This document shows, one piece after another, positions 11,301 through 40,423 of a stretch of 64,000 bases of DNA. The DNA is taken from assembly GCA_036172245.1 (NCBI GenBank), contig JAYWIR010000003.1, positions 5,580,001-5,644,000 of the forward strand. Reading direction: 5' to 3'. This DNA comes from Raillietiella orientalis. Lineage: Eukaryota. Numbering within the stretch: the stretch's first letter is position 1; each line of letters starts with the position of its first letter. A program made the translations under genes and the position numbers. The notes below the pieces were generated by a model. It searched no databases, was not told the DNA's origin, and was given only the letters and a program-made list of their open reading frames with translations.

Positions 11301-14300
11301 CACAGGCACGGAGGAGGGCATTCGAGGAGCCGTCCTGAGCTTTGCGCCTCCCTCACGAGAAGGCGCGCGCACCTCCCGGCCTACATTCACGCACAGCCGC
11401 CTCCAGATGCTTTCTCCCTCCCTCTCTCGGCTTCTAAATTTGGACCAGCCGCCGCCTTTCCAGATGATCTTCCCGCCGACGAGAAAGGAGAGGAAAATCC
11501 GAGAGATGTCGCGACGCGCGCGGACAACCCGCCGGTCTCTCTGCAGCCGGCGGGCAGCTGTCGCGCCCGTCGAGGGCCCGACTTTCCCCTCCCGCTGCCA
11601 AAGACCGCGCTGCCAGCTCCCGCAAATAAAACGGACACTCCAGGAGGTGAAGGAAGAGACCGCGGTGCCGGCCGGCGACCCAGCCACACCCCTTCTGAAA
11701 GGACCGCGCACGCGCCAACGCGACCCCCGGGCGTCGGGTTCATCCGCTTTCCGCCGTGGATCCCCCCTTCCTGCCCTTTCCCTCCCGGAGAACGAGAGGA
11801 CTTGCGCGAACCGTCCTCTCCTGGGCCGCGCGCTAAGGGGAGCTCCCGTCTGGGCCGGGCGGGAAGAGGAACCGGCTTGCGCGCCGGAAGGCGGGACGAC
11901 CTCTACTGCCAGCGCCGACGCGGAGGGCGCCTGTCTTGAGGACAAAATCACCCCATGAAAACGGGGGAGGGGGCGCAAGGGGAAAGCGCACGAGCACAGC
12001 CACCAACCGCACGGGACGCGGGACCACGGAGCGCTCGCGCACGTCCGGAGGGCCTGCGACCCCGCGGTGCCCCCGAAGGTCGCCACGGAAACGTGGATGA
12101 GCGAGGAAACCTTGCGCGAGGGGGCGTTGCGCAAGCGCCGCAGCTCGGCGTGCGGGCGGTGGAAGGGCGTTCCCCCACGTCCCTCTCTCCGCAGCGGCGG
12201 CGAGGCTGGGCGACTCGCCCGCGGGTGCTCCGCGCGACGGCCTCGAGGTCTCACAGATGGGAAGAAGGGGGGGAAAGGTGCGGCCGAGACCTCGGCAGAG
12301 CGCAGGTGTCGTCACCGCCGAGGATCGGCGGGCGCGCAGCCGGAAGCCGCGCGCCTCCATCGGGTAAACGGGGAGGGGCCCTCTGTTTTCACCATCACTG
12401 GCTCGCGCGTGCCCTGGAGCCGACCTCTCATCGCGGATGAAGGGAGCACCAGCGATGCCATGCGGGCGCACCGCTGGGCGAAGGAAAGGTAGCAGCTCAG
12501 AGGAGGACCACGAGGCGAGCCGCCTGTCGGCATGCGCAGGGAAGCAACGGCAGTCTCTCTCACGGCCTACGCGGGAAAGGGGGAGGGGGAGCCCCATTCT
12601 ACTTCCCCCTCCCCTCTTTCCCACGGGACGGTGGAGACACTGACGGGCCCGGCAAGCCGCGGTCTGACGGCGAGCCGACCGACCGGGACGCAGCTGCGAT
12701 TGCCCGAGGCAGGGAAACGGCGCAGCATCCCCTGTGGACCGGAAAACGCAGACAAAAGGACTGGGCGATCCTACCCTGCTGGGTCACGGGGAGCGCCCGC
12801 CAGGGTTCCCCTCGTCTACCTAGCGCCGCGGGACTCGATCGACCCTTTCGCTGCCTCCGGGGCGCGCCAGACTGACCAGCAGCCCGGAGGGGGTAAGAAA
12901 GGGAAAGAGGGAGAAAGAGAGGTGGAAGAGGAGCACAGCCCCCAGTGCAGACAGGCCGCATCAGGAACCCACTGCCTGCATACCCAGGTGCTCGCCCAGG
13001 AACGTGGGGCCCACCGGCGGGCGCAGCGACGCACGCGGCAACCGATTGCCTCCCCTCCCCCGCGTGCTGGAGCCCCGAATCATCCGCGTGCGTCCTCGGA
13101 ACGAGCGGGCAAGGGAGAGGAGCCCGCAGGGCACGGCCCACTCACACGGGGAGGCGGAAGTGCAGCATCCCACCGACCGAGGCGCGGCGGTCGGCCGCCG
13201 GCGAGGGCGTCCCTCGGGCACCGCCGCACCCGGAGAAGCGCGCGAGTCGGACTTCCTCGGAGCGAAGGGATATCGGAGCGCCCCATCCTCTGAGAGGCAG
13301 AGTCTGTCCACGGGGCGTAAGGGAGAGAGGAAGGAAGGAGCACTCGGCTTCTGCCCCTCTCCCAGCGAGTGCTGCAAAGGAGCAGCTTCCAGATCTGGGA
13401 AAGAGGAGTAGCGCAAGGAGCGGAGAGGGACGAGAGGGATGGTCCACCCTCCTCGGACGGCAGATGCTGCGAGTGCCAAGGCTGCCGCCGCCGGAGGTCT
13501 CGGGCTCGGAAGTTTCCTCTGGCGAGGAGGGACTGCCCCCCCTCTCACCTGGCTTCACGACTGGACCAGGAAAGGGACGAAGTTCTCGTAGCCGCCCTTG
13601 CTCATCATGTGGTCCTGGAGGGCCACCAGCTGGCTGCTGCCCAGGCAGGCGTCCGCCGAGCCGATGTGGATGGTGTGCTGGAAGTTGGTCGGCTTCCCGA
13701 TCATGGCCGGGCTGATGCGCCGACGTTTCTGCAACACGGGAGAAGCGAAGGTCAGTGAGGAGACGGCAGGGCATGCTCGAACGGCATTTCTGGATCCGCG
13801 AGCGCGATGGAAAAGAGAAGAGGAGGATCAAGAAGTGGAGGAAGAGGAAGGAATGGTGCCGCCTCCCGTTCCTTTCCTCCTCCCAACGCATGTTTGTGCG
13901 CGCATCCTTTCGCCCCTTTTTTGGAGGTAGCTGGACCACCAGAGAGCGATCCTATGAAGGGGAGAGGGAGGTCATCAGCCGGGAGCGCACCCCGGGTTCC
14001 GCGGGGAGGAGGAGCTCCATGTTTCCTAAAGGAGGAGGAGACCGGACGTCCTCAGGTGAGCGCACCCGCATCCGGCTGCTGCAGACTTTCTGCGCGTTCC
14101 GAGAGCGGGCGTGGGCACAGAGGAGACGTCGCGCTCCGAGAGAGCCCGGCTGACATGATTCCTCCCCCCAATATGTCCCCATCAGGAAGGGCAGCAGGGG
14201 ACCGATCCGCGTTCATATGGAGCGGTTGAACCGGGCCCGCGAGAGCGCTCCGAGCGGACCTGCCGCATGCATCGGCCCCCCTGGCGGACGACGTTTTCCT

Positions 14301-16800
14301 GGGAAAACCGCCTGCCGCACCGCCGAGCGCGCCGCGGAGGAACGATCGCTTCGTTCCGGTAGCGCCTTGGGGTGTTGCGGGACGGAAGGGACGAAGCTTC
14401 TCACGGAGAAGACGGGGGTTTCCCCCACCCTTTGGGGTAGGGCATGAGAAAGGGAAGGGAAGGGGCAACGCGCCGAAGAGATCGCCGCCGTCCCCGGGAG
14501 GGATCGTGTGGAAGCTGCCTGCGCAACACGGGGGGTAGCTCCCATGCGAGCCCCAAAAGGCGGTCGCTTCGGGAAGGGGACCGAACAAGTTTGGGAAGAA
14601 AGGGAGGGCGCCCTTCTCCCCTGCCCCCTCCCCCCCCGTGCAGCCGGATTCGGAACAGGGGCCGAGAATGGGGGCCCGCCACCGGAAGCGGGAGATGCCC
14701 CACGGCCGGTCCAGCCGACCTACGGAGGGGAGGGCTGTCTCCTCGCCGCCCCCGCACCCACATTCCGACCGAATGTGCACGGGCGAAAGGCTGGCATCCC
14801 GCCATCTCGGCGGAGGAGGTGGCGCAGTAAAGCTCCGACCCCTTGCAGAGTCGGGAGGGAAACGGGAACAGGGGGAAAGAGAGGGAGAAGGAGGGGGGAT
14901 ACCAAGCTGCTTACGTCACTCCGCACGCGAGCTTGCGCTCGCGCTCCGCTTCCTGCGACAACCACCCGAGCGTACTCTTAGAGGGAAAGCAAGAAAGCGC
15001 CCCATCGGGCAGGAAAAGAAGCAAGTCACCCGCTGACCCCCTTCTCCTCCCCACCCCCGTTCCGCTGGAGACCCTTCCTTCCCCTTCCGGACTCACCATC
15101 GAGGGCTCCGGCGTCACGCAGCAACCGAACAGGGATACCAGCGACTCACCCGTCATGCTTCGGGCCGGTGGATGGGGTAGAAAGGAGGGGATCGGGGGGA
15201 GGGGGAGGCTTCCGGGGAAGAACTTCAGAGAGCTGCCCGCCGGCGCATCCGCTCGGGCCCACTCGGTCCAATTCCGCTGCTCTCTCCTTCCGCTCCCTGG
15301 GAGCTTGTTCCTTCGGCTGCGCGGGCGGGGGCGCTTGCCTCACGGACGGCGGGCTGGAACCTCCGGTCCACTTCGGGCTTCCTCCTCTTCCTCCGAGACG
15401 GGATGCTGGGGGGACACACGGAACGGGATCCATGACCGAAGCACGTTCGGCGTTGCGCCGCGCCCCCGCGCCGCTGACCCACACAGTTCCCCCCCCCTTT
15501 TCCCTTCCCCGATAAACGGCGAGACCCACTCAAGCCGCCACCACCCTTCCCGATCACGGGCACACACATCATGCCACCACCGAAGGGAGGAACAACACTG
15601 CGCGCCCCACGCGCTCTTCCAGCCTTATGTGCGCGTCGCCGCCGAGGAAGGGGAAACGCGAGCGCCTCCCTCCCGAGCGGCGAGCGCGGGCACAACGCCG
15701 CCGCCATCTAAGAGCAGTGGCAGGAAGCTCGGAGCCCATAAGGGACTAGACTGCTCTCCATCTTCCTCTGCGCCGATTTGAGGGCGCCCATCGGACTAGG
15801 GAGGAAGAAAGAGACGAAGCCACCTCTTCCGCGCCCAGAAACGGGTCAGCGGAGCGAGAGGAGCGGCTTCTTCTTCTCCTCACTTCACAGCAACGGTGCG
15901 CAGGACGACGGCGATTCTGCTGCAATTTTCGGCATCCGGGAAAGACCCCTCCGGAGAGAAGACCCAACGGGTCCCGCTTCCGGAACTGGCAGCTGTAGAA
16001 AGGGGGCTTCCGAGGGATCGCTGCGAGTCACCCTGCCTGGAGAGACATTACCCCTCCTCCTAGGCTCCTGCCTGGGGGCGTACCGCCTCCTTTTTGCTTG
16101 CACAACAGAAGGGCAGGCTCACCGCAGAGCGTTCTCGGCGTGTCGCAACCACGAGAGATCATCGCCTAGGCGCGAGTGCCCACAAGCATCGATGGTACTC
16201 ATCTTTCACCAAGGAGTCTTCTCTCCCTCTTCCTTTGTCTTTCGTTTTCCCTGACTCAGGACGTGACTTTGGTCCGAAAGCGTGTCAGCAGAGACTTTCG
16301 CCCTTGTGCTCCTCCTCCTCCTCCTTCCACTTGCACACCCACCCTCCCGACACATCCGCAAGAGGAAGAGCTGCTGCATCCAGACAGTGCCAGAGGCATC
16401 GCGAAGAGCCAGGCGCTCCAAAGGAAAGGCATAGGACGAGCGCCCGTAACAGTACTGCTCGGCTTTGGCACTCCTCGCGCTGCCTCCAGCTGCCCTCGAA
16501 ACGCAGGCGAAAGTGGAGGAAAGGCAAAGCGACGGGAGGAGGCGTCGGTAGAACTCTCCCTCCCTCCAGAGGAGCAACCCTAAAGCGCAGGCGACCCAAG
16601 AGGAAAATCCTCCTCCTCTCGGAACTGGGTGAAAACCTCCCTCCTGGGGAAGAATTTCAAGACGAGGTGCACAGCGGCGCCTAGCAGCCGAGCTGCAAGA
16701 GAGTCGGCAAACTGCGATAAATCCCGATCCATGAGGCCGCCCACGAGCGCGACCTCACGCATCAGGTTTCGTCAATAGCGCCGCCCACTTCCGTCTAACC
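8400..16800. other. Very GC- and CpG-rich domain around CDC42SE
   Basis: Visibly dense CG/CGCG content and many overlapping Arg/Gly/Pro/Ala-rich ORFs in all frames. Boundaries approximate. Confidence 0.7.
13555..15156 (-). CDS. CDC42SE: CDC42 small effector protein (SPEC/CDC42SE family), 77 aa, complement(join(13555..13728,15097..15156))
   Basis: Exon 1 MTGESLVSLFGCCVTPEPSM ends at ATG|GTGAGT. The 1368-bp phase-0 intron ends in CTGAC..cttctcccgtgttgCAG. Exon 2 reads KRRRISPAMIGKPTNFQHTIHIGS...LQDHMMSKGGY...*. The di-cysteine, basic patch, CRIB motif and QxxMxSKGGY tail are family hallmarks. Confidence 0.95.
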
Positions 16801-29000: not shown

Positions 29001-30125
29001 TGAATCGCTTCCAAGGAAATACTGAAGTCGTTTGCAGTATCATTAGGTTTCCAGAGAAAACATGGAAGATCTGAGCCAGATTTGAGAAAAACGCGGACCC
29101 TTTACTCGAAGGAAAAGGGGGAAACATGCAGAAAAAGGAGAAAATAGGGCTCGTCTATGGGAGAAGCAGAAAGCCAAACGCTCGCTGCTGAAGAAGACCA
29201 AAAGACAGAGTACTAAGCAGAGGAAATAAACGAAACGGATCGGCTGAACTTCTGGGAGCGTAGGAAGTGTTCCGGGTTCCATGATGGTTGGGAGCGACTG
29301 CGAGAAACCCTAGCGGGGTCTGCAAGTCTACGCAGAGAGCCGCCCAGCTGTTGGGCGGCGGACCTCTCACTGCGCCATCTGCGAAGACAGGGTTCCTCAG
29401 CAAATTTCCTTTTCCAAACACAACGAGGAAGAGAGGCGAAACGGGTAGGAGAGAGCAGCCTGCATTCAGGCACAGGGGCAGGAGCGGATGCGGGGTGATG
29501 CGAGCGTGGGATTTTTGTGATGTCAGCAGTTGAGGCTCCTCGCTCCTTCACTCTCCAGTTCAGAAAGCTCTTGCGTGCCTGTGAGTGTGAACTTAGCCGT
29601 GAGGTTGCTTTCACCTTTTACCTGAAACAGGAATCTGCGCAACTGTGGTTCCTGAACGCAGATCCTTGACGAGGACGAACCAGACACCAGGAGATGGCTT
29701 AGCTGAGAACGACATCTACCTTCCTTCTCCTCGACTACACCCTTAATTTGCCACAGGGAGGAAGGACATTCCTCGTTTTCCCTCTCAGTCTTTGACTCAC
29801 CACCAGTCTTCCCAGAATGAAATTCGTTCCCTCGCTTTCTACTCAAAGGGGCGCTTTCAAAACGCAGCGTCACAAAGCCTTCGCGATGGCACTGACTGAA
29901 GAGAAATGGCCATTTCTTCTGTTTGTACTGTTTTCCGAAATAAAGCGTATTCGAGCAACAAATCACGCCTTAACACCCGAGGCACTACTGACTTGTCAAC
30001 GAACCGCTACTGCTCAGCTGATGGCTGACAAGCCCAACCAAAATTGCAGAATTTTCGGGGTTTTCGCCTCCGATCTGCGTTCAAAAGAAATTCCCTGGAC
30101 GGAGGGGAGGGATGTCTTCCACGAA

Positions 30126-30153
<28 letters not shown>
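30126..30153. repeat. (TC)14 microsatellite
   Basis: Read directly from the sequence. Confidence 0.95.
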
Positions 30154-30156
<3 letters not shown>

Positions 30157-30539
30157 ACAAAGGGATCATCCATAAGCACAGAAATCCCCTTCCCCGTGTC
30201 TGCAGCATGCCACCACATCCTGTGACACTCACAGTCATGCTCCACGTAACCAAGAGTGCTTGTGGGAAAATTCCGGATCTCAAACCTCAAGCAGCCCCAC
30301 CGTGCGATCACTTCCGCTTCCAAAAGTTTCCGGCTTCCGCTTATCCCACCACTCGGTAACGACCAGAATGAGCCAGCACGAAATTCGAGAGATCTCTGAT
30401 CTCTGATGTGGGCGAGGATCGATTTTAAAGGAAGAAAAGACCAACTGAGAGCTCCTGAGATTTCTAGGAAGGTGATTTTCTATCCTTTTTTTTTTCTCGA
30501 GAGAGTAGCTGGGTAGCTGATCTCATATTAGGAATAGAG

Positions 30540-30850
30540 AGATTGGCGTATGCTTCTCACTTCATAGGTCGAATCACTCATCGTTCCCCTTGCCCTCCAG
30601 CACAGCATTTGAAAGGAAGGCTCTCGTTGAGATGGTAGCGTCCAGCTGCTTTCTCCGAAGACTTTCTTGGTTGTGGAGTTTGCTTCCTCGATTTCCTTCC
30701 GCGTCCAACTGAGCAGAAACCACGCTTCCGCGTGTGATGTACTCATTTTTAACTTGCTCCTCTAGTTCTCATAAGCTATGCACGCCATCAAGGTATTTCA
30801 TATTCACTTCTGTACTTATTCCATGTTCATCAGTTTTGGGTTCCTACAAG
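30540..30850 (-). mobile_element. R4/Dong-like non-LTR retrotransposon RT C-terminal remnant
   Basis: KYLDG....VKNEYITR and, in another frame, LSWTRKEIEEANSTTKKVF, matching the KYLG..K.EY..R / W...EI..LD..TRK pattern recalled for this clade. Confidence 0.4.
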
Positions 30851-32631
30851 TTCTCAAAATGAACCCAGTACATTGAGGGAAAGTAGCTCCGTAGAAACCG
30901 AATTGCACTAAAGAATGTTGAGGAACAGATTTTCCAAGCAAAATTTTACCGCTGATCGGTGACATTGAAGAATTGTATAAGCGCATGGACGAAGGTTGAA
31001 GAATATGTAGAAATAGTAATGTCATTATTAATACTTGCAATTTTGGAAAAACATCCAGCACTAGACTGATTTTATGTTCCTTAATTCAATTTAAGGAAGA
31101 TTTGATTTTTAATTAAAAGTGCTTCCCTGATTAATCTGAAGATCTCCTTGGGAGACAGGATCCTTGGCATCATGAGTTGGGAAGTATGATTCCATATGAT
31201 ATGACTAATATTCTACCTGCTAATGAGTGAATTCAAGTATTTTGGGGCGGTGTAAATTGTAAAATAACATGAAGTTTAAAAACAAGTTCAACAAATCTGA
31301 CAAACGCAAGTTCTGCGTTTCAAAGAATACCCGAGGTTTTAATGAGAATGCTTTAAACAAGTTTTAAAACGAGCAATTCAGAAACAGTAGTGAAGCATTT
31401 AGCGAGTTCCGCAAATTTTTGACAATCGCTCTAAAAAATCGCTTTGCAATGCTTCTATACATAATTTCTATGGACTAAGATCAAGGAAGACATATAAAAC
31501 CCTAAGGTATAAATGTGACCATAGAGAAATATAACGTGACCAGTAACACAGAATCTTAACTTCAATATAAGTGCACGTAATGTATTTTATATGTTACATA
31601 TATTTGAGAACAAATTCCATTGTATTCAGCATACTGGAGAATTCTTTTCGAAGTCTGTATGAGCTCTCGCGAGATTTTTTTTTCTTTTTTCCTGCTTTCG
31701 TTACATCCATCACACCCTTTCCATGCAGCGAACACTTTTATATATAACCAACATTACACCAACGTTACAGTGTTAAATAGTGTATTATTAATGTGAATAA
31801 TTTTTTTTAAAATAAACGACTGAAGTTTACTTGACTGAAAATACAAATTTTGTCGCTATCGTAACAAACGACTTTACCGCTATTCACTGAAATGTAATAA
31901 CAGCAATTTAAACCAATTTTCCCTTTCCACATCTCTGTTAACGTCATTGTAACATGCCCAGTCTCATCAAAAGCAAATGGGCCATATTCAAAGAATTACC
32001 AAACACCACGGGATCATGAAATTGAATAACTTGTACAATAATACTAAATTTCACACAATCCTGAGTTTTCATATTAAGTATGAAATCGATGAAATGCATG
32101 TGTGCCGTTTTAAAAAAATGCATGGATTTACAGAAAACTGAAAGATGGCACCACCGAATAATTGTTTGCATCGAATCATGGTTTTCATACTTCGCGCAAG
32201 GAACAGATGTGAATAGAATGTGCAGAATGAAACATGAGAGAGCAAGCAACCGAGATATATCAGGAAGACGAAGTATGATTTCAACACTATGAAATTTACA
32301 AATGTTTTTTTTTTTTTTTTCATATGAAAACTGGATTCATAGTTAGTTTACATATGTATATATTGGACCTAAATTTGCATTTGGTTTGGTTTTACATATA
32401 GGGGAACTTTCGAAACACGAAATATTTGAAAACGAAATTAAGGGTTCATCTAAACTAAAGATAGCGATGAGGGACAAAATTTCGCATAAATTCTCGTTTT
32501 GTTTTTCATGATGACGAGTGATGTTGAAAGTTATTGCTGTAATTTTCAAGTTACAGTTAGTTTTTGTGTTAGTAAATGTTAGAATACGCCTGTTTACGAT
32601 TTTAATATTTAGAAGGGAAACTCCTATTGCC

Positions 32632-34221
32632 ATGGACTGTTACACACACAAATCCAGATTGCAAAAATGTTTAGCAGAAATCAAAATTCTCATTTCACTA
32701 ACATACACCTTGGTTTTCTTGCTAAGGTATCGATAGGATGAAGGAAAATAATGAAGACCTAGCCAATGCTCTTCAACAGCAACGACTTCTAGGTCAAAAG
32801 TATTCCAAGCAATTATTCAGGGTAAATACTGAAAATCATGCATTAAGGAAGAAAGTACTACATTTAGAAGCAATGCTAGATGATGTTAAGGTTAATATGC
32901 TGGTAGTCATTTTGCAAAGAAAAATACACAACTCTGATGACTCCTCTAATTCATAGCAATATGTGGAACCTGTAAAGTTGGAATTGGAAAATGCAATCAA
33001 ATATGTATCCATGCTGACTGAACATATTGCAAATTCAGCTAGATGCCTGACCCAAATCTCAAATCATATGCAAGGAGCATTACAGATCAACTCTCTCCTG
33101 CATGATGGCTCCAGCAATATCATAGGTGAGTGGCCTGAGCAGCAATCCTGAGATGCAGGTTGTAGCATGTCGCCAGAACCCAGCTCAGTCAGCTAATCTT
33201 AATCACCAATGTAAACCTACTCCTAAGCAGAGAGTCCCTCCAATGATCAGTGGAATCCCCTTACAGAGGCCAAAGATTCCATTGTACCGAGTAGATAGCA
33301 TCAAGCCTTCCAAAAGCAGTAAGTGAAATTAGGATGATAGATTGTAAATGCTGCAGAATCCTTGTCTCAAATCCAAGAAATGCACTTAGATTCACCGATC
33401 AGTGATGATTTTTCCATTAAGGAAAGCAGCACTGACAATCAGCCCAGGCGTGCCAACCGAAAATCTCTAATTGCCATCCCCAGTGAAGACTGGGATGAGC
33501 CTTTTGAAGATGCATTATTGAATGAAATGGAGGAGGAGGACCCGTTAGAAGGTCCCAGCAGTCGTGTAGACAATATCATTAAGAAGATCCAACCCTCAGT
33601 GATATCCATTAATTCATCATGTTTTGAAGAGTTCATTCCAGAAAACTCTTTGTTGACATTGCCTGTAGTTAAACTGAGACGTTTATCACAAGCTGTTAAT
33701 CATCATCCTGCAAGCACCCTTTCTGAATCTTCCATCACAAATTGTAGATCATCAGAGGTCACCATCATACGTGTGGAAGACATGGATCTCACCTATCTTT
33801 CCGACTCTTCTAAAAAGCACAGCTCTCCTGTAGAAAACCTTACAAACTCCCATGCTACCTGTGAGGTAACAGATGACACTGGAGTCCAAACAAGATGTGA
33901 CAATTCTAGCAAGTAAGCTCAGACTGATAATATCATCTGATTGCTTATCAGAGCAACCCATGATGCAGATACAATCAACCAGAGGTTTCTTCAGCACCTT
34001 TGGTATCTGTTAATTTAACAACCAGAAGTTGCCGTCGTGCTGCTAGCCAGATCGGGTCACTTAAAGAACCTAGTCTGCTCATGTAAGATGAACAGCATAC
34101 ATCAAGCCTCATCTCTTTTAGCAAGCTACGCCGTGTGGATGAACCTCCTGGCAAGCAGAAACACAAGCGTTCTACTAAAATCCACCCCATGTCATTGCCG
34201 ATTGATGTGTCTACCATCTAA
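32632..34221 (+). CDS. SGO1: Shugoshin, 422 aa, join(32632..32668,32727..32890,32957..33125,33166..33318,33357..33912,33952..33984,34026..34082,34122..34221)
   Basis: All seven introns are GT-AG and phase-compatible (1269 nt CDS). N-terminal coiled coil RMKENNEDLANAL carries the Asn typical of the PP2A-binding coil. The C-terminal SGO motif RSCRRAASQIGSLKEPSLLIKLRR assembles only after splicing. The first exon and start codon are the least certain part. Confidence 0.92.
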
Positions 34222-34472
34222 GCCTGTCTTCATTTCTACCTCAATTTCCCCCTGTTGAAATTCCTCAGGTTATGGTATCACTTCAGAGTTGACAAATACT
34301 TGGAAGGAATCTCATCTCTGAAGCCAAATTCCTGCAAATGGAATCAGGGCTAACTCACTGTTGTTGCAGTTGCTGAATGTGCAGGATGCCATCAATAACG
34401 CCAATGAAGCTTTAGTGTCACTAAGGCTCCATCAGATAACTTGCACTTACATTGTTCATTGAATGTTATTTT

Positions 34473-34478
34473 ATTAAA
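34473..34478 (+). terminator. Candidate polyadenylation signal (ATTAAA) for shugoshin
   Basis: Lies ~250 nt after the stop, near where the CpG-poor stretch ends. Hexamer evidence only. Confidence 0.35.
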
Positions 34479-35621
34479 TGAGAATGTAGAGGAGAGTATG
34501 TATTTTTAGGCGAGATATCGTTGCAGATATTTTTAAGCGTATAATTTTGGATAGTTATTCGGGTTCACCTTCACGCATTTTTTTGCAAAAATTGCCGTGG
34601 CCTTTTTTGTAAAGTATGTTCAAGTTCAAATTACATGCATGCAATGAATATTTGGTTTGCTTCGAGTCTACTCACACAAAGGGTTTTCATGGATGAAGGG
34701 CAAAAAACCACGATTATGACATTACAAAAATTCAAACAGGTCATTATGCAAACAGTATGTTGTGCATTACAGATATTAATATGAGCTCCTAATTTGATAA
34801 CTTACAAACACGTGGTGCAGCTGGTAATCAGAAAACAATAACATGCACGTTAACTTTTTAAATGCCTCTTGAACAGAAAGTGTTCAATGACTGGGTGCAA
34901 AGAAAGCAATAAAAATCTTTACATGCAACACGGAGCAAAATGTGTGAATGAAAATGGGAATGCCGAATTATGCGGATTCCAAGCAACCGTTATTTTTTCC
35001 CAGCATACCACCTTAATAACCGGAATGAAAAGCAATGCTGTCCGAAGTGAATATGTAAACATATACAAAAAAACTTTATATTTAAAATGTCCCTGCTAAT
35101 ACGCAATTCATTTCGAATAAATAGGATATCCGCCAGCAGACGTAAGGACAGATGAATTTCAAATTCCGAAAGGAAAAAGGATAGCTGTTATGAACGTTTT
35201 TTAAGGGTTTAAAACGTGTTTTTGTGTTAGAAAGTTCTATACTTGAAGAAGAAGAAGAAGAAGGAAAATGTTGAAGAGCATTCAAAATCGGCAAAACACA
35301 TTCCGGTCACCTCCTTCATTATAGCTCAAGCGCAGTTCTGATCTAATTTCTAAGCAGCATAGTAATTACGCTATTTCGGTTGCCAACACGAAAATTCTCA
35401 CAAAATTCATGGTAAATCGAAATGATTTAAATACCACAATTTTGGTGCTACAAAAAAGCTCAGACCAAGGACCATTTCGAGGGACACATTAATTCAGTTT
35501 AGCACCAACTGCATAAAGTTCCACCTTTTAATTTGAAAGAAGTGTTGTTTAGCACTTGACGAATGAATGCCTTGGACCCTTAGGTTTTGCATAATTTACG
35601 CAGAGCAAAGTGAAAATGATG

Positions 35622-35670
35622 TGTTTATCCTAATAAATATGAAATGTTTATCCTAATAAATATGGAATGT
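35622..35670. repeat. 23-bp tandem duplication
   Basis: TGTTTATCCTAATAAATATG(A/G)AA, two copies. Confidence 0.9.
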
Positions 35671-36059
35671 TAAAAGAGGTAAAGGAGATGAATGATAAAC
35701 TCTTCATTTAAAAGCGTCAGAAACAGAGCGACTCTTAATACAGTGCAAGTGCTGAAATGCAGATTCTTATCGATTACCAATTTTTGACGACCGTTGAAAC
35801 GATTATTAATTTCGTTTTTCCTTCTTAATCTACTGGCAATGCTCCAATTAATTTTTCAGCTAACGACCTCTTTTCGAATCTATACCTCTCGCACATCTAT
35901 CCTTGAAAAATACCTTAGCCGATTTGAAACGTTAAAAAAGACTAATTAGTTTATTTCAAATAACTAGTGGCGAAGGAAATTCTCAAAACTCTTTGAGGTT
36001 CCCGATTGGTTTTTTTTTTTCTTTTGATTTCCATGATCAACGTCGGTTCTTTTGAAAAA

Positions 36060-36300
36060 CAATATTTGCAGGACAACTTCTGTTTGACTTCAGGAAATGT
36101 TTGTTTCTTCTAACTAACTGGGATGTAATATTTGTATGCTTCCAAGTAAACCGTTCTTGCCATCACTTTCTGTTTTAGAGGGTCCAGTGGTTAAAGCAGA
36201 CAGCTTGAAAGTTGTATTCAAGAATAGCATCTGAAGCACTCGCACCATCACTTTGATGGTCAGTTTTTAACGCCAGCAGATTTTGAACTTTACTTACTTT
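36060..36300 (-). mobile_element. pogo/Tigger-like DDE transposase remnant
   Basis: NLLAL..DH, MLFLNTT and L*PLD..K...R..Y resemble the LLLD..H / FLP.NTT..LQPLD signature. Confidence 0.35.
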
Positions 36301-37499
36301 ACTTTTGTTTTTCCCCGTACGCACCACGAATAGTTAGATCGAAAGGACAACTGATCTCGTTGTCTTTTTGACCCCTGGTTGCTGGAAAGCGATTTTAAAA
36401 CCAAGCAGCATAGCACAAACGTCAGGGGCATGTTGCAAAGCAAGGATGAGATGTAATAATGCGTTTCATGGAAAATAGGGCATTCCCCTCCTCCTCCCCA
36501 TGTTCTGCCCATTGCTCATTGGAGAAGATTGCATTCAAATATTAAGTGAACTATAGAAGAAGAAATTATGAAATAAATGCTTTATTTCAAAGTAGCAGTG
36601 AGACTGTAGTGAAACTTATGACAAATAAATAACCTTGAACATGACAAAGTAAGCATTCTTAAACATAGGTTCCTGATTTCGGTCGTGCATCTTCGCTTTA
36701 AAACTTTATATTACACCATCGGTGTTTAAAGTGTTCTTGCAAACGTGCTTTTGTCATCGCAAGTGCTGCTGCTGTCAAGAGCAAAAAACTAGAATGACTT
36801 TCCAGGATCCCAGGATTTATCGTGGATCAGAAAGATCAGAATAAGCAATTACAGAAAGACATTTCTGATTTTTGTGTTGTGCATTCCTAGATAATGTCAA
36901 ATCAAAGTCACACGGGAGACTTTTGCAAAGTGAAATTCCAAAAATTCCCAAAAAGTTCGACGGTACTCTTTAATACGGACTATCCACTCTCTAGAGTGCC
37001 ATCGAATTAGATGCATAGTGAATAGTGCAAACTAATTCCAATTCATGTAACTCGACCCCCACCCGTTGCTGTTATCCTTTATGGCTTTCATTTGTCTTTA
37101 TTCGAAGGATTTTCTGGAAGACAAAAAAAAGCTTGAGAGCCGCCAGTTTCTTTGAAGCTCCGAAGAACGCGCTTCAGCATGAATGTTGCCCTGCAAATAA
37201 ATGATTGTCTGCGCTGAGACACAAACACTGATTTATTTGGAAAATCCTTGGAGTGTCCCCATTGGAGTCGGGAGCTCGGGATGTTTTTTCCTACTAATTT
37301 TTTTCGTAACCACATCAGGGTTGCCAGCCTGAGATTTGATTCGAGAACAGAGCCCGAGAGACTTATACGAGCAGGTGAGTGATGGTGACGCGAATTTACT
37401 TCTGCCAGGCGTGGTTTCTCAGGCAAACAACAGTTATGCAAAAAGAAAAGCTCGCCGTAGAAATCTGGGAGTGTTCCTACAATTCAATGGAGGAATACT

Positions 37500-38500
37500 T
37501 CCATTCCCAAGTTGAAAGATTTCCCGTTCTAAGTAAACCCTTTTGGGAGCCCCACTGAAACTTTGCTAATGAGAACTCGATGGTATGTCGAAAGAAAGAA
37601 TCAATGGATCAAAGTTCTGTTTCTGCATATTAAATGTTTTTGCGATTCGGGTCTGCGTATAGCGAAACCGATGAGGAAATTGTGGAAGGAATAGGTAAAC
37701 CTTTACACACCGCCATGGAATGTCTGCATCCATTTAGACATTCACATAATGTGACTTCCCCACATGTAACAGGAAACAAAGGTATAGTGTAGGTGTCTTC
37801 TGTGTGTGGATGGCATTCGGAGAATCTCACATGGCAAAGGTAGAAACCCTCGCTTAAGAAAGCAATCCGCATTTATGGTGACGGGAAGAAACAAGCTCGC
37901 TTAAGTACCTTGTACAGAATATTAGGACTGGTACAAACGACTAGAGCAGACAGGTAGTGGAACAGCACGTAACCTCAAGGATTGGCGAGAATCGGAGATA
38001 TATGCCGTAGGCGAGAATTCTTTATGATTTGAGAAATTTTACCGTTCTAAGGGAAACTTGTACTAACGCAACTCGTTTTTTTTTTTTTTTTGCTGTTGTT
38101 GTTGTTTTTTTTTTTAAAAAAAAAAAACAAGTGAGGGCAATAAGAAAAAGGTGAATAGTACACGGAATGTTTGGGGATAACTTCGTTGAGAAAACCAGCA
38201 GGAAACTTTGCAAAGTGGCCGGCATGGAAATCAGCGACAAAAGGAGTTTCCAATCAAAGAAAACTAAAAGCATGGCAATCCCTTATCCTCTGCCGGCCCA
38301 GCCTGAATAGATCCAGTCAGGAAGAGAGGCAGCACGAAGTGTCCGTTACGGCCGGATACAAAGAAAATGACACGTTCAACATGGAAGCACTCTCCAATAC
38401 CACATCGTGGTAGAGAACAATACAGCCCCACAAAAACTGCCTCCCCTCCTCTGGGAGCTCTGTCGTGTACAAATGAGGACCTGATGGAACAATCGACGGG
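37500..38500 (+). mobile_element. Decayed LINE RT
   Basis: PFGSP (~PQGSP), SAYSE (~AYADD), LKYLV (~KYLG) and KLKAWQSLI..P.L occur in the expected order. Confidence 0.3.
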
Positions 38501-39233: not shown

Positions 39234-40423
39234 GCGGATCCAGGCCTTCAGGTCCAGCTTCCATACCTCTTCAGCTCGTCCTCGATATATTTCTGATTGT
39301 TCAGAAGCTGCTCCGTCAGAAGCTGTTTCTGGGTCTCCAGTTGCGCCTGGATGACATTCTCCTGCTGGTTCAGTCTGAATTGGAACTCTCGCTGTTGCTC
39401 CCGAAGTCTCCTGTGGTGGTGATGTTGCTCCAGAAAGAGGATCTGCTGCTGCTCTCTCATCTGGCGATGGTACTCCTGCTTCTGGAGCATCAGGTGCACC
39501 TGCTGCTCCAGCTGGACGGCCACTTCCAAGTGCTGTCGCTCCAGTCTTTCCCAGATCTCCTTCTGCTGCTCCTCGAACCTTTGCTGGTGCCCCCGGTAAT
39601 CGTCTTCCAGCTGCTTCAGCTGATCACGCTGCTTCTCCAAGAGGACTTACTGGTGCATCTCCTGCAGCTTAGCAAGCTTTTCCTGCTCTTCCTGTTTGTA
39701 TTTTTCCAGCTGCTTCTTCTGGTATTCCATCTGCCGCTCCAGGAACTGCTGCTCCGCCACGAGCTTCTGCTCGCGTTCTTGTTGCTGGCCTTCCACGTGC
39801 TGCTGCGCCTCGTTCAGCTCCCCTGCTGTTCGGACAGCTTCTCTTCGAGGAACAGCTTATGCTCCTCCAGTTTCTGCTGAAGCTTCATCTGCTGCATCTG
39901 GAGCCTGTCTTCCAGCAGCTGCTCCTGAAACGCGAGCTCCGCTCTTAGCTGATTCCTCTGTCGCTTCAGCGTCTCCGAAAGAGACACTTGCTTCTCCGCC
40001 CATTCCTTCTTTAGAGTTTCTTCTCCCCTTGCTGCGACTTCCTCGCTGCCAGTGGTCGTCAATTCCGGCAGTAGCAGTATGTCCATTGATTCCTCAGCTC
40101 CCATCGCTCCCAAATTCTCAGGGGTGCTCGGCGTTCCGTCGGTGGTTGCAGGTGTCGTCACCGTGCTTTCGGCACCATCGATGGTGTACTCCAGCGCGGT
40201 GGCTCCTGGTAGCGCCTCTGGACTTTTCTCCGCCTCCCATCGGTGAATCGCATCTGCAGTGGATCGCGCTCCCGGCAACGAAGAAGGCCAGGTCCAAGAA
40301 GCGCTGGGACTGCATGGTTGTTGGTTATCGGATTCCGCTGCAAGTTCTTCTACCTCACGAGCAGCTGGCCACGTCAGCACTGTCTGTTGCCCAGTACGAC
40401 TCGCGGTGTTGTCGATCGTGGTT
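39234..40423 (-). pseudogene. Disrupted intronless ORF: low-complexity N-terminus followed by a long Gln/Glu/Leu-rich hendecad coiled coil
   Basis: ORFs 39814..40380 and 39248..39640 join into one reading if one G is added in the GGGG run at 39820-39823 and the TAA at 39647-39649 is read as CAA. Codons are strongly CAG/GAG/CTG-biased. Family unknown. Confidence 0.7.

Follow-up and report, generated by a model that had tools for sequence, protein, structure and literature searches.

Introns of 38–41 nt in a shugoshin-like gene of Raillietiella orientalis, probably the short tail of a minimal intron class

Introduction

Among the two-component fits of intron length tabulated in PMC6157073, the mode of Drosophila melanogaster is 58.65 nt, and the lowest first mode of an arthropod belongs to Tribolium castaneum (47.55 nt, lowest of the 106 arthropod rows by hand count). 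Nematode modes in the supplement of the same paper lie at 42–46 nt, including 45.9 for Caenorhabditis elegans, 43–44 for Strongyloides and 42–43 for Meloidogyne. The Q10/Q25/Q50 values given in PMC13644364 are 41/43/47 for Oikopleura, 38/42/48 for Meloidogyne and 36/39/56 for Intoshia, and the medians listed there are 22–27 for the myxobolids and 24 for Dicyema. Gyrodactylus is described with two intron modes, at ~32 and 58 nt (PMC4040987). Drosophila introns of 40–50 nt have been described with weak 3′ sites, a branch point near −14 and a minimum of ~35 nt from donor to branch (PMC5762160, Pai et al. 2017). Our literature searches for genome or intron work on pentastomids returned no intron statistics, and a search on short introns of crustaceans returned nothing specific.

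Here we analyse a stretch of 64,000 nt (the window; contig JAYWIR010000003.1, positions 5,580,001 to 5,644,000) of the Raillietiella orientalis assembly, which comprises 210 Mb in 491 contigs. A sequence-only reading of this window had described five consecutive introns of 38–41 nt in a shugoshin gene and proposed from them a genome-wide intron mode of 39–40 nt, served by an adapted spliceosome. We compare the locus with conserved genes of the same genome and with the systems described above.

Results and Discussion

The five GT..AG segments of 40, 38, 39, 41 and 39 nt are found at exactly the positions and with exactly the ends that the sequence-only reading gave (Table 1). The donors follow GTRAG in four of the five, intron 4 starting with GTTT instead, and all five acceptors are CAG or TAG. 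That their removal restores the frame is correct only with a further 66-nt intron, and introns 3 and 4 have an equally open alternative. Once all six introns are removed, a frame of 406 aa runs from the ATG at 32738 to the stop at 34221. Keeping any single intron cuts the product to 72–374 aa. For the 66-nt intron, one gene-model run favoured a donor 12 nt downstream. The candidate 58-nt intron upstream would possibly add 16 residues, starting from an ATG at 32632, and the first version of the gene model picked another upstream donor, at 32273. Between 32420 and 32490, 5′ of the gene, the window contains TTTGAA and TTTCGC elements, which we take to resemble promoter elements of cell-cycle genes (CHR and E2F sites).

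Table 1. Features of the shugoshin-like gene and of the CDC42SE-like comparison intron, in window coordinates
Feature	Position	Strand	Remarks
Candidate upstream intron, 58 nt	32669..32726	+	weak donor, CTAAC motif, T-rich end
Coding exon	32738..32890	+	putative start at ATG 32738, the earliest in frame; coiled-coil-like N-terminal segment
GT-AG intron, 66 nt	32891..32956	+	needed for the open frame; absent from the list of the sequence-only reading
Coding exon, 169 nt	32957..33125	+	
Intron 1, 40 nt	33126..33165	+	well supported; 58- and 67-nt in-frame alternatives score lower
Coding exon, 153 nt, frame-symmetric	33166..33318	+	
Intron 2, 38 nt	33319..33356	+	well supported
Exon, 556 nt	33357..33912	+	acidic, Ser/Thr-rich linker
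Intron 3, 39 nt	33913..33951	+	donor and acceptor both strong; branch-like A at position −12; chances roughly even
Rival single intron, 56 nt	33913..33968	+	replaces introns 3 and 4; product 414 aa
Exon, 33 nt	33952..33984	+	conditional on introns 3 and 4
Intron 4, 41 nt	33985..34025	+	no stop codon in the frame of the exon that follows
Exon, 57 nt	34026..34082	+	encodes residues 1–19 of the SGO-like motif
Intron 5, 39 nt	34083..34121	+	required for the EPSL-x-x-KLRR spacing; pyrimidines 9/10
Last coding exon	34122..34221	+	ends at the stop codon
CDC42SE-like gene intron, 1368 nt	13729..15096	-	shown for comparison; located in the window's GC-rich half

In the encoded protein, a coiled-coil-like N-terminal stretch is followed by a long, acidic middle rich in Ser and Thr, and the C-terminus carries a basic motif. 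Shugoshins are described with an N-terminal coiled coil, a divergent middle and a basic C-terminal motif (PMC4301718). By eye, the basic motif matches the fly, frog and plant SGO motifs listed in Table 3 of PMC5134366. The EPSL-x-x-KLRR spacing of the motif means that intron 5 must be exactly 39 nt; the sequence-only reading had likewise called for this intron to build the motif. The divergent middle and, for the motifs of that table, the spacing are shared with the shugoshin/MEI-S332 family, as may be the coiled-coil-like N-terminus, whereas no single exon here gives a profile or BLAST match to it. The large exon has no shugoshin homolog at E 0.01 among 569 candidates. Pfam applied to single exons returns one sub-threshold, unrelated match (one of five pieces) and none in the region of the SGO exons, and a PDB search with the exons of the gene gives no match. 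A search of the genome with PF07557 scored five candidates, the shugoshin-like locus not being among them. The atlas look-alikes of the N-terminal segment are generic coiled-coil or unnamed clusters with recognition below threshold. As the single exons have no independent family match, the shugoshin name rests on motif comparison by eye. Two of the PF07557 matches were considered as shugoshin genes and rejected, since on reading they are not convincing genes.

Gene-finder calls at this locus varied across versions (all five introns exact, then two of five, then three of five), and we therefore enumerated alternative stop-free structures with a compact gene model whose training set consisted of other genes of the same genome. 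Among 220 such structures, with flat or empirical length priors, the uncalibrated weight of intron 1 is 0.93–0.99 and that of intron 2 is 0.87–0.97. On sequence grounds, introns 1, 2 and 5 (40, 38 and 39 nt) are well supported as real, so that this part of the run of five consecutive short introns stands. Introns 3 and 4 may instead be one intron.

There is nearly an even chance that the introns of the locus are 66, 40, 38, 56 and 39 nt long, with introns 3 and 4 not spliced as such, or that isoforms of both kinds exist. Because the frame of the SGO exon runs through 33969–34082 with no stop codon, one 56-nt intron can stand in for introns 3 and 4. All four model settings favour it: among 23 stop-free structures its uncalibrated weight is 0.61–0.90, against 0.01–0.36 for the 39+41 pair. 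The donor and acceptor of intron 4 belong to the weakest 5% of aligned sites. The 33-nt exon that the sequence-only reading placed beside the 57-nt one, and which depends on both introns being real, is shorter than the shortest internal exon of the aligned genes (53 nt). On the other side, the 56-nt intron has no branch-like motif and bypasses a stronger acceptor that has a branch-like A, while introns 3 and 4 both have branch-like motifs. Skipping of a stronger YAG is depleted 3.6-fold (4 observed vs 14.3 expected). The gene-model weights leave out stronger-YAG skipping and branch motifs, both of which favour the 39+41 pair, and the first version of the gene model predicted this pair exactly. 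We consider the pair and the single 56-nt intron about evenly matched on these predicted signals. Their spliced products differ by 24 nt.

The lengths were compared with introns from less than 1 Mb of the genome (below 0.5%), picked around conserved genes. Protein sequences were aligned to the genome with a minimum intron of 15 nt and no length term. Prp8, 91–93% identical to three references, has 21 introns that are the same with all three, and 17 of them measure 41–55 nt. Together with seven intron-bearing CCT genes it gives an aligned set of 70 introns, counted after HSP60, a PIKfyve-like locus (27–29% identity to references) and partial CCT1 duplicates were dropped. Fifty-seven of the 70 are shorter than 70 nt, with a median of 46 for these and a peak at about 43–47; Q10/Q25/Q50 of the set are 41/44/47 nt. 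The floor is ~38 nt, which is also the shortest aligned intron, although several CCT junctions rely on references only 35–37% identical and the 38- and 39-nt calls in CCT6 are the least secure. No class below 30 nt (median < 30, reduced donor) appears among the aligned introns.

A gene finder extends this sample. Its early versions recovered 38 and 46 of the 70 held-out introns exactly, and 40 after self-training; the final model for AT-rich genes recovered 55 of 70 with 76 predicted. With a flat prior over 20–100 nt, it yields 104 confident short introns at other AT-rich loci, with a median of 45 and a peak at 43–47, under a confidence filter that passed 30 true and three false introns in held-out genes. 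The short-intron mode of AT-rich housekeeping genes is ~43–46 nt, a narrow peak across unrelated genes. It lies well below the fly mode tabulated in PMC6157073, as the sequence-only reading had stated for the introns of the locus.

With a mode near 45 nt, the shugoshin introns sit in the low tail. Under independence, five of five introns at or below 41 nt would occur with a probability of ~1e-4 (mean-of-five P 0.001), and three of four, with P 0.01–0.02. This rarity leaves some gene-level effect unexplained. Heterogeneity of intron length between genes is not significant (P 0.38, 27 genes), and inside AT-rich genes intron length does not correlate with intron GC (rho −0.08). Its trend with position in the gene is weak (rho −0.23, P 0.08).

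For annotation, the sequence-only reading had warned that a minimum intron of 40–50 nt would spoil such gene models. A minimum of 50 nt would indeed lose 44 of the 70 aligned introns, but one of 40 nt only three. Annotation here calls for a minimum of ~30–35 nt, and AT-rich and GC-rich genes need to be modelled separately. Two features of the CCT family were noted on the way: the CCT7-like gene (L004, G000:C4:1818921-1820390) is intronless while the other seven CCT genes carry 4–11 introns, and a 52-nt intron of the CCT2-like gene (L043, G000:C117) is GC-AG, one such case among the 70.

The aligned introns keep the full donor consensus, and their acceptors have a mild T excess over ~10 nt. In C. 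elegans the acceptor is a fixed TTTCAG-type sequence, whereas the acceptors here have no fixed sequence of this type. YTRA motifs with the A at −13 occur 12 times against 4.4 expected (max-bin P 0.038; P 0.058 for the window −15..−11). Branch-like motifs at −11 to −15 are seen in four of the five shugoshin introns, intron 2 being the one without. Matches to U2AF2, SF1, SPF45 and SAP30BP are found in the genome, so the survey of splicing factors that the sequence-only reading called for finds U2AF2, SF1 and SPF45 all present. The SPF45 match reaches E 2e-27 to the UHM of human SPF45. Three of the four U2 fragments that span the branch-pairing stretch have the usual sequence there, and none of the loci read is an intact U2 gene.

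AT-rich and GC-rich blocks alternate sharply on the same contigs throughout the genome (L059-L078, L093-L112). In the window, GC is 0.48–0.68 over positions 1–30000 and 0.37–0.41 over 30000–38000. Housekeeping genes (GC3 ~0.3) lie in AT-rich blocks, and myosins (GC3 0.81–0.90) and CDC42SE in GC-rich blocks. The intron of about 1.4 kb that had been reported in CDC42SE is confirmed (Table 1). In the GC-rich genes, represented by six gene models without hold-out validation (GC3 0.81–0.90; five from myosin loci, one RRM gene), 52 introns have a median of 62.5 nt, a mode of ~55–65 nt and strong C/T tracts. The median of short introns in AT-rich genes is 46 (n=166), and the difference has P 1e-15, a clear division of intron length by base composition. 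Per ten positions, pyrimidines average 6.4 in AT-rich and 8.0 in GC-rich introns. At −13..−4, shugoshin introns 1–5 have 4, 4, 6, 5 and 9 pyrimidines, whereas 158 other short introns average 6.4, so that the near absence of a polypyrimidine tract, claimed for most of the five, holds for three. Since the average in long AT-rich introns is hardly higher (6.7, n=43), the weak tract goes more with the compartment than with intron length.

These two classes could mean that AT-rich and GC-rich introns use different routes of 3′ splice-site recognition, through SPF45/SAP30BP and U2AF respectively. A human precedent is described in PMC8363638 and 10.1101/2022.12.30.522300. The differences in length and pyrimidine content are in line with it, as are the SPF45 and SAP30BP matches. 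However, base composition alone can account for the difference between the classes, since GC-rich introns need longer, stronger signals. The long AT-rich introns are equally tract-poor, the presence of SPF45 is uninformative on its use, and the GC-rich values come from the six unvalidated models. We regard separate routes as unlikely. If they were real, intron-length floors and U2AF independence could be compared side by side in one genome. It is likewise doubtful that the genome joins the shortest modal introns tabulated for an arthropod to a division into tract-poor 45-nt AT-rich and tract-rich 60-nt GC-rich compartments.

The proposal that the genome as a whole has a mode of 39–40 nt and a specially remodelled spliceosome is very improbable. 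Three to five introns of 38–41 nt in the shugoshin-like gene point in its direction, and comparable runs exist in PABPC1 (41, 39 and 40 nt, the first junction fixed via 1CVJ numbering, 10–64, then 66–190) and in an MCM3-like gene (39, 43, 41, 40, 44 and 57 nt). Over eight MCM loci, the introns are slightly shorter (18 introns, median 43.5, P 0.09). But only 8 of the 57 aligned and 27 of the 158 pooled short introns are 41 nt or less, and the modes fall at ~43–46 nt in AT-rich and ~55–65 nt in GC-rich genes. Remodelling finds no direct support: the standard factors are present, and similar or shorter modes are tabulated for nematodes, Oikopleura and flatworms. That the segments are chance GT..AG pairs patching a broken or mis-assembled gene is hardly credible, although none of the exons matches a homolog, a Pfam family or a PDB entry. 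Of the five GTRAG donors in 32701–34300, four have a YAG 38–41 nt 3′ of them (5000 doublet shuffles give a mean of 0.36, P 0.0002, for a window of spacings chosen post hoc). The gene-model score of the region is 46.5, while 100 shuffles reach 8.3 at most, and conserved genes carry introns of equal size.

We conclude that the shugoshin introns are probably ordinary GT-AG introns of the major spliceosome, intron-defined, and belong to the short tail of a minimal class of ~44–46 nt. The length class, its floor of ~38 nt, the canonical donors and the weak T-rich 3′ end are direct observations. Recognition would proceed by intron definition, with U1 and U2 pairing across the intron and a branch A some 11–15 nt from the AG. 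At this distance ~26–29 nt would separate the branch from the donor, and a long pyrimidine tract would not fit, in keeping with the description of 40–50-nt introns in flies. The lineage has probably shrunk such introns to the floor that the spliceosome tolerates, a little under flies and equal to nematodes, with a standard parts list. Shugoshin would be one of several genes with introns clustered at this floor. To be noted, introns of 38–41 nt imply less than 30 nt from donor to branch, which is below the fly minimum given in PMC5762160, so a tighter geometry is probably tolerated here. Nematodes and flatworms presumably must tolerate a similarly tight one.

Compared with the nematodes and Oikopleura, the lengths here are nearly the same as those tabulated in PMC6157073 and PMC13644364, but the host is an arthropod whose GC-rich genes have an additional class of longer introns. 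The ultra-short introns of Drosophila, as characterised in PMC5762160, share weak 3′ sites and a branch near −14 (a weak peak at −13 here); they are a minority class in flies and the main class here. Tribolium castaneum is likewise an arthropod with a mode below 50 nt in the fits of PMC6157073, although the AT-rich mode here, estimated from ~160 introns of selected genes, appears 2–4 nt lower. Being near 45, it equals or slightly undercuts the lowest arthropod value tabulated there, a near-record low. With the micro-introns reported for the parasites Gyrodactylus, the myxobolids, Dicyema and Intoshia, our case shares shortening in a parasitic lineage, retention of U2AF and two length classes. 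Introns there are shorter, and myxozoan donors are described in PMC13644364 as reduced to GTa, in contrast to the full consensus here.

Prp8 places the species among arthropods, outside the sampled insect clade (FastTree, 38 rows). The best COX1 matches are pentastomids (77, 76 and 75% identity), and COX1 groups with pentastomids at SH-aLRT 99 in a 15-row tree with no fish louse included, where compositional attraction is possible because COX1 is C-rich and G-poor. On these markers the animal is probably a tongue worm or a near relative of one. With the present introns, the animals that have a ~45-nt intron class come to include a parasitic crustacean lineage; the known lower limit of animal intron length is unchanged.

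Additional observations

The SPF45 gene (L124:1768-2082) has a stop-free, in-frame intron of ~48 nt in its UHM domain, read through as a 16-residue insertion relative to human SPF45. Stop-free in-frame introns of this kind are easily annotated as coding. SAP30BP matches twice with equal scores, in opposite orientation and 15 kb apart (G000:C1:2154108-2154406 and 2169549-2169847), by recent duplication or assembly artefact. Two SF1-HH loci lie on contigs C50 and C19.

The best four of 46 U2 snRNA matches (L047-L050; contigs C3, C34, C30 and C389) start immediately downstream of the branch-pairing stretch, with at least three kinds of AT-rich tail in front of them. These junctions look like 3′ junctions of U2-targeting retroelements, presumably Utopia or Keno. 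In addition, the 5′ end of U2 is matched at 461 dispersed places (L051-L058 and 453 more). The eight that were read (L051-L058) end near base 33–37 with unrelated flanks, like 3′-truncated U2 pseudogenes.

The genome contains 54 matches to mitochondrial COX1, with many nuclear copies (e.g. L045, L046 and L037:5716-5918), one of which lies on this contig a short way outside the window. Three nuclear copies that were compared are 84–94% identical to the copy on contig C282, which ties the mitochondrial COX1 to this genome. Within the window, the minus strand of 39251–39877 contains long Gln/Glu-rich open frames.
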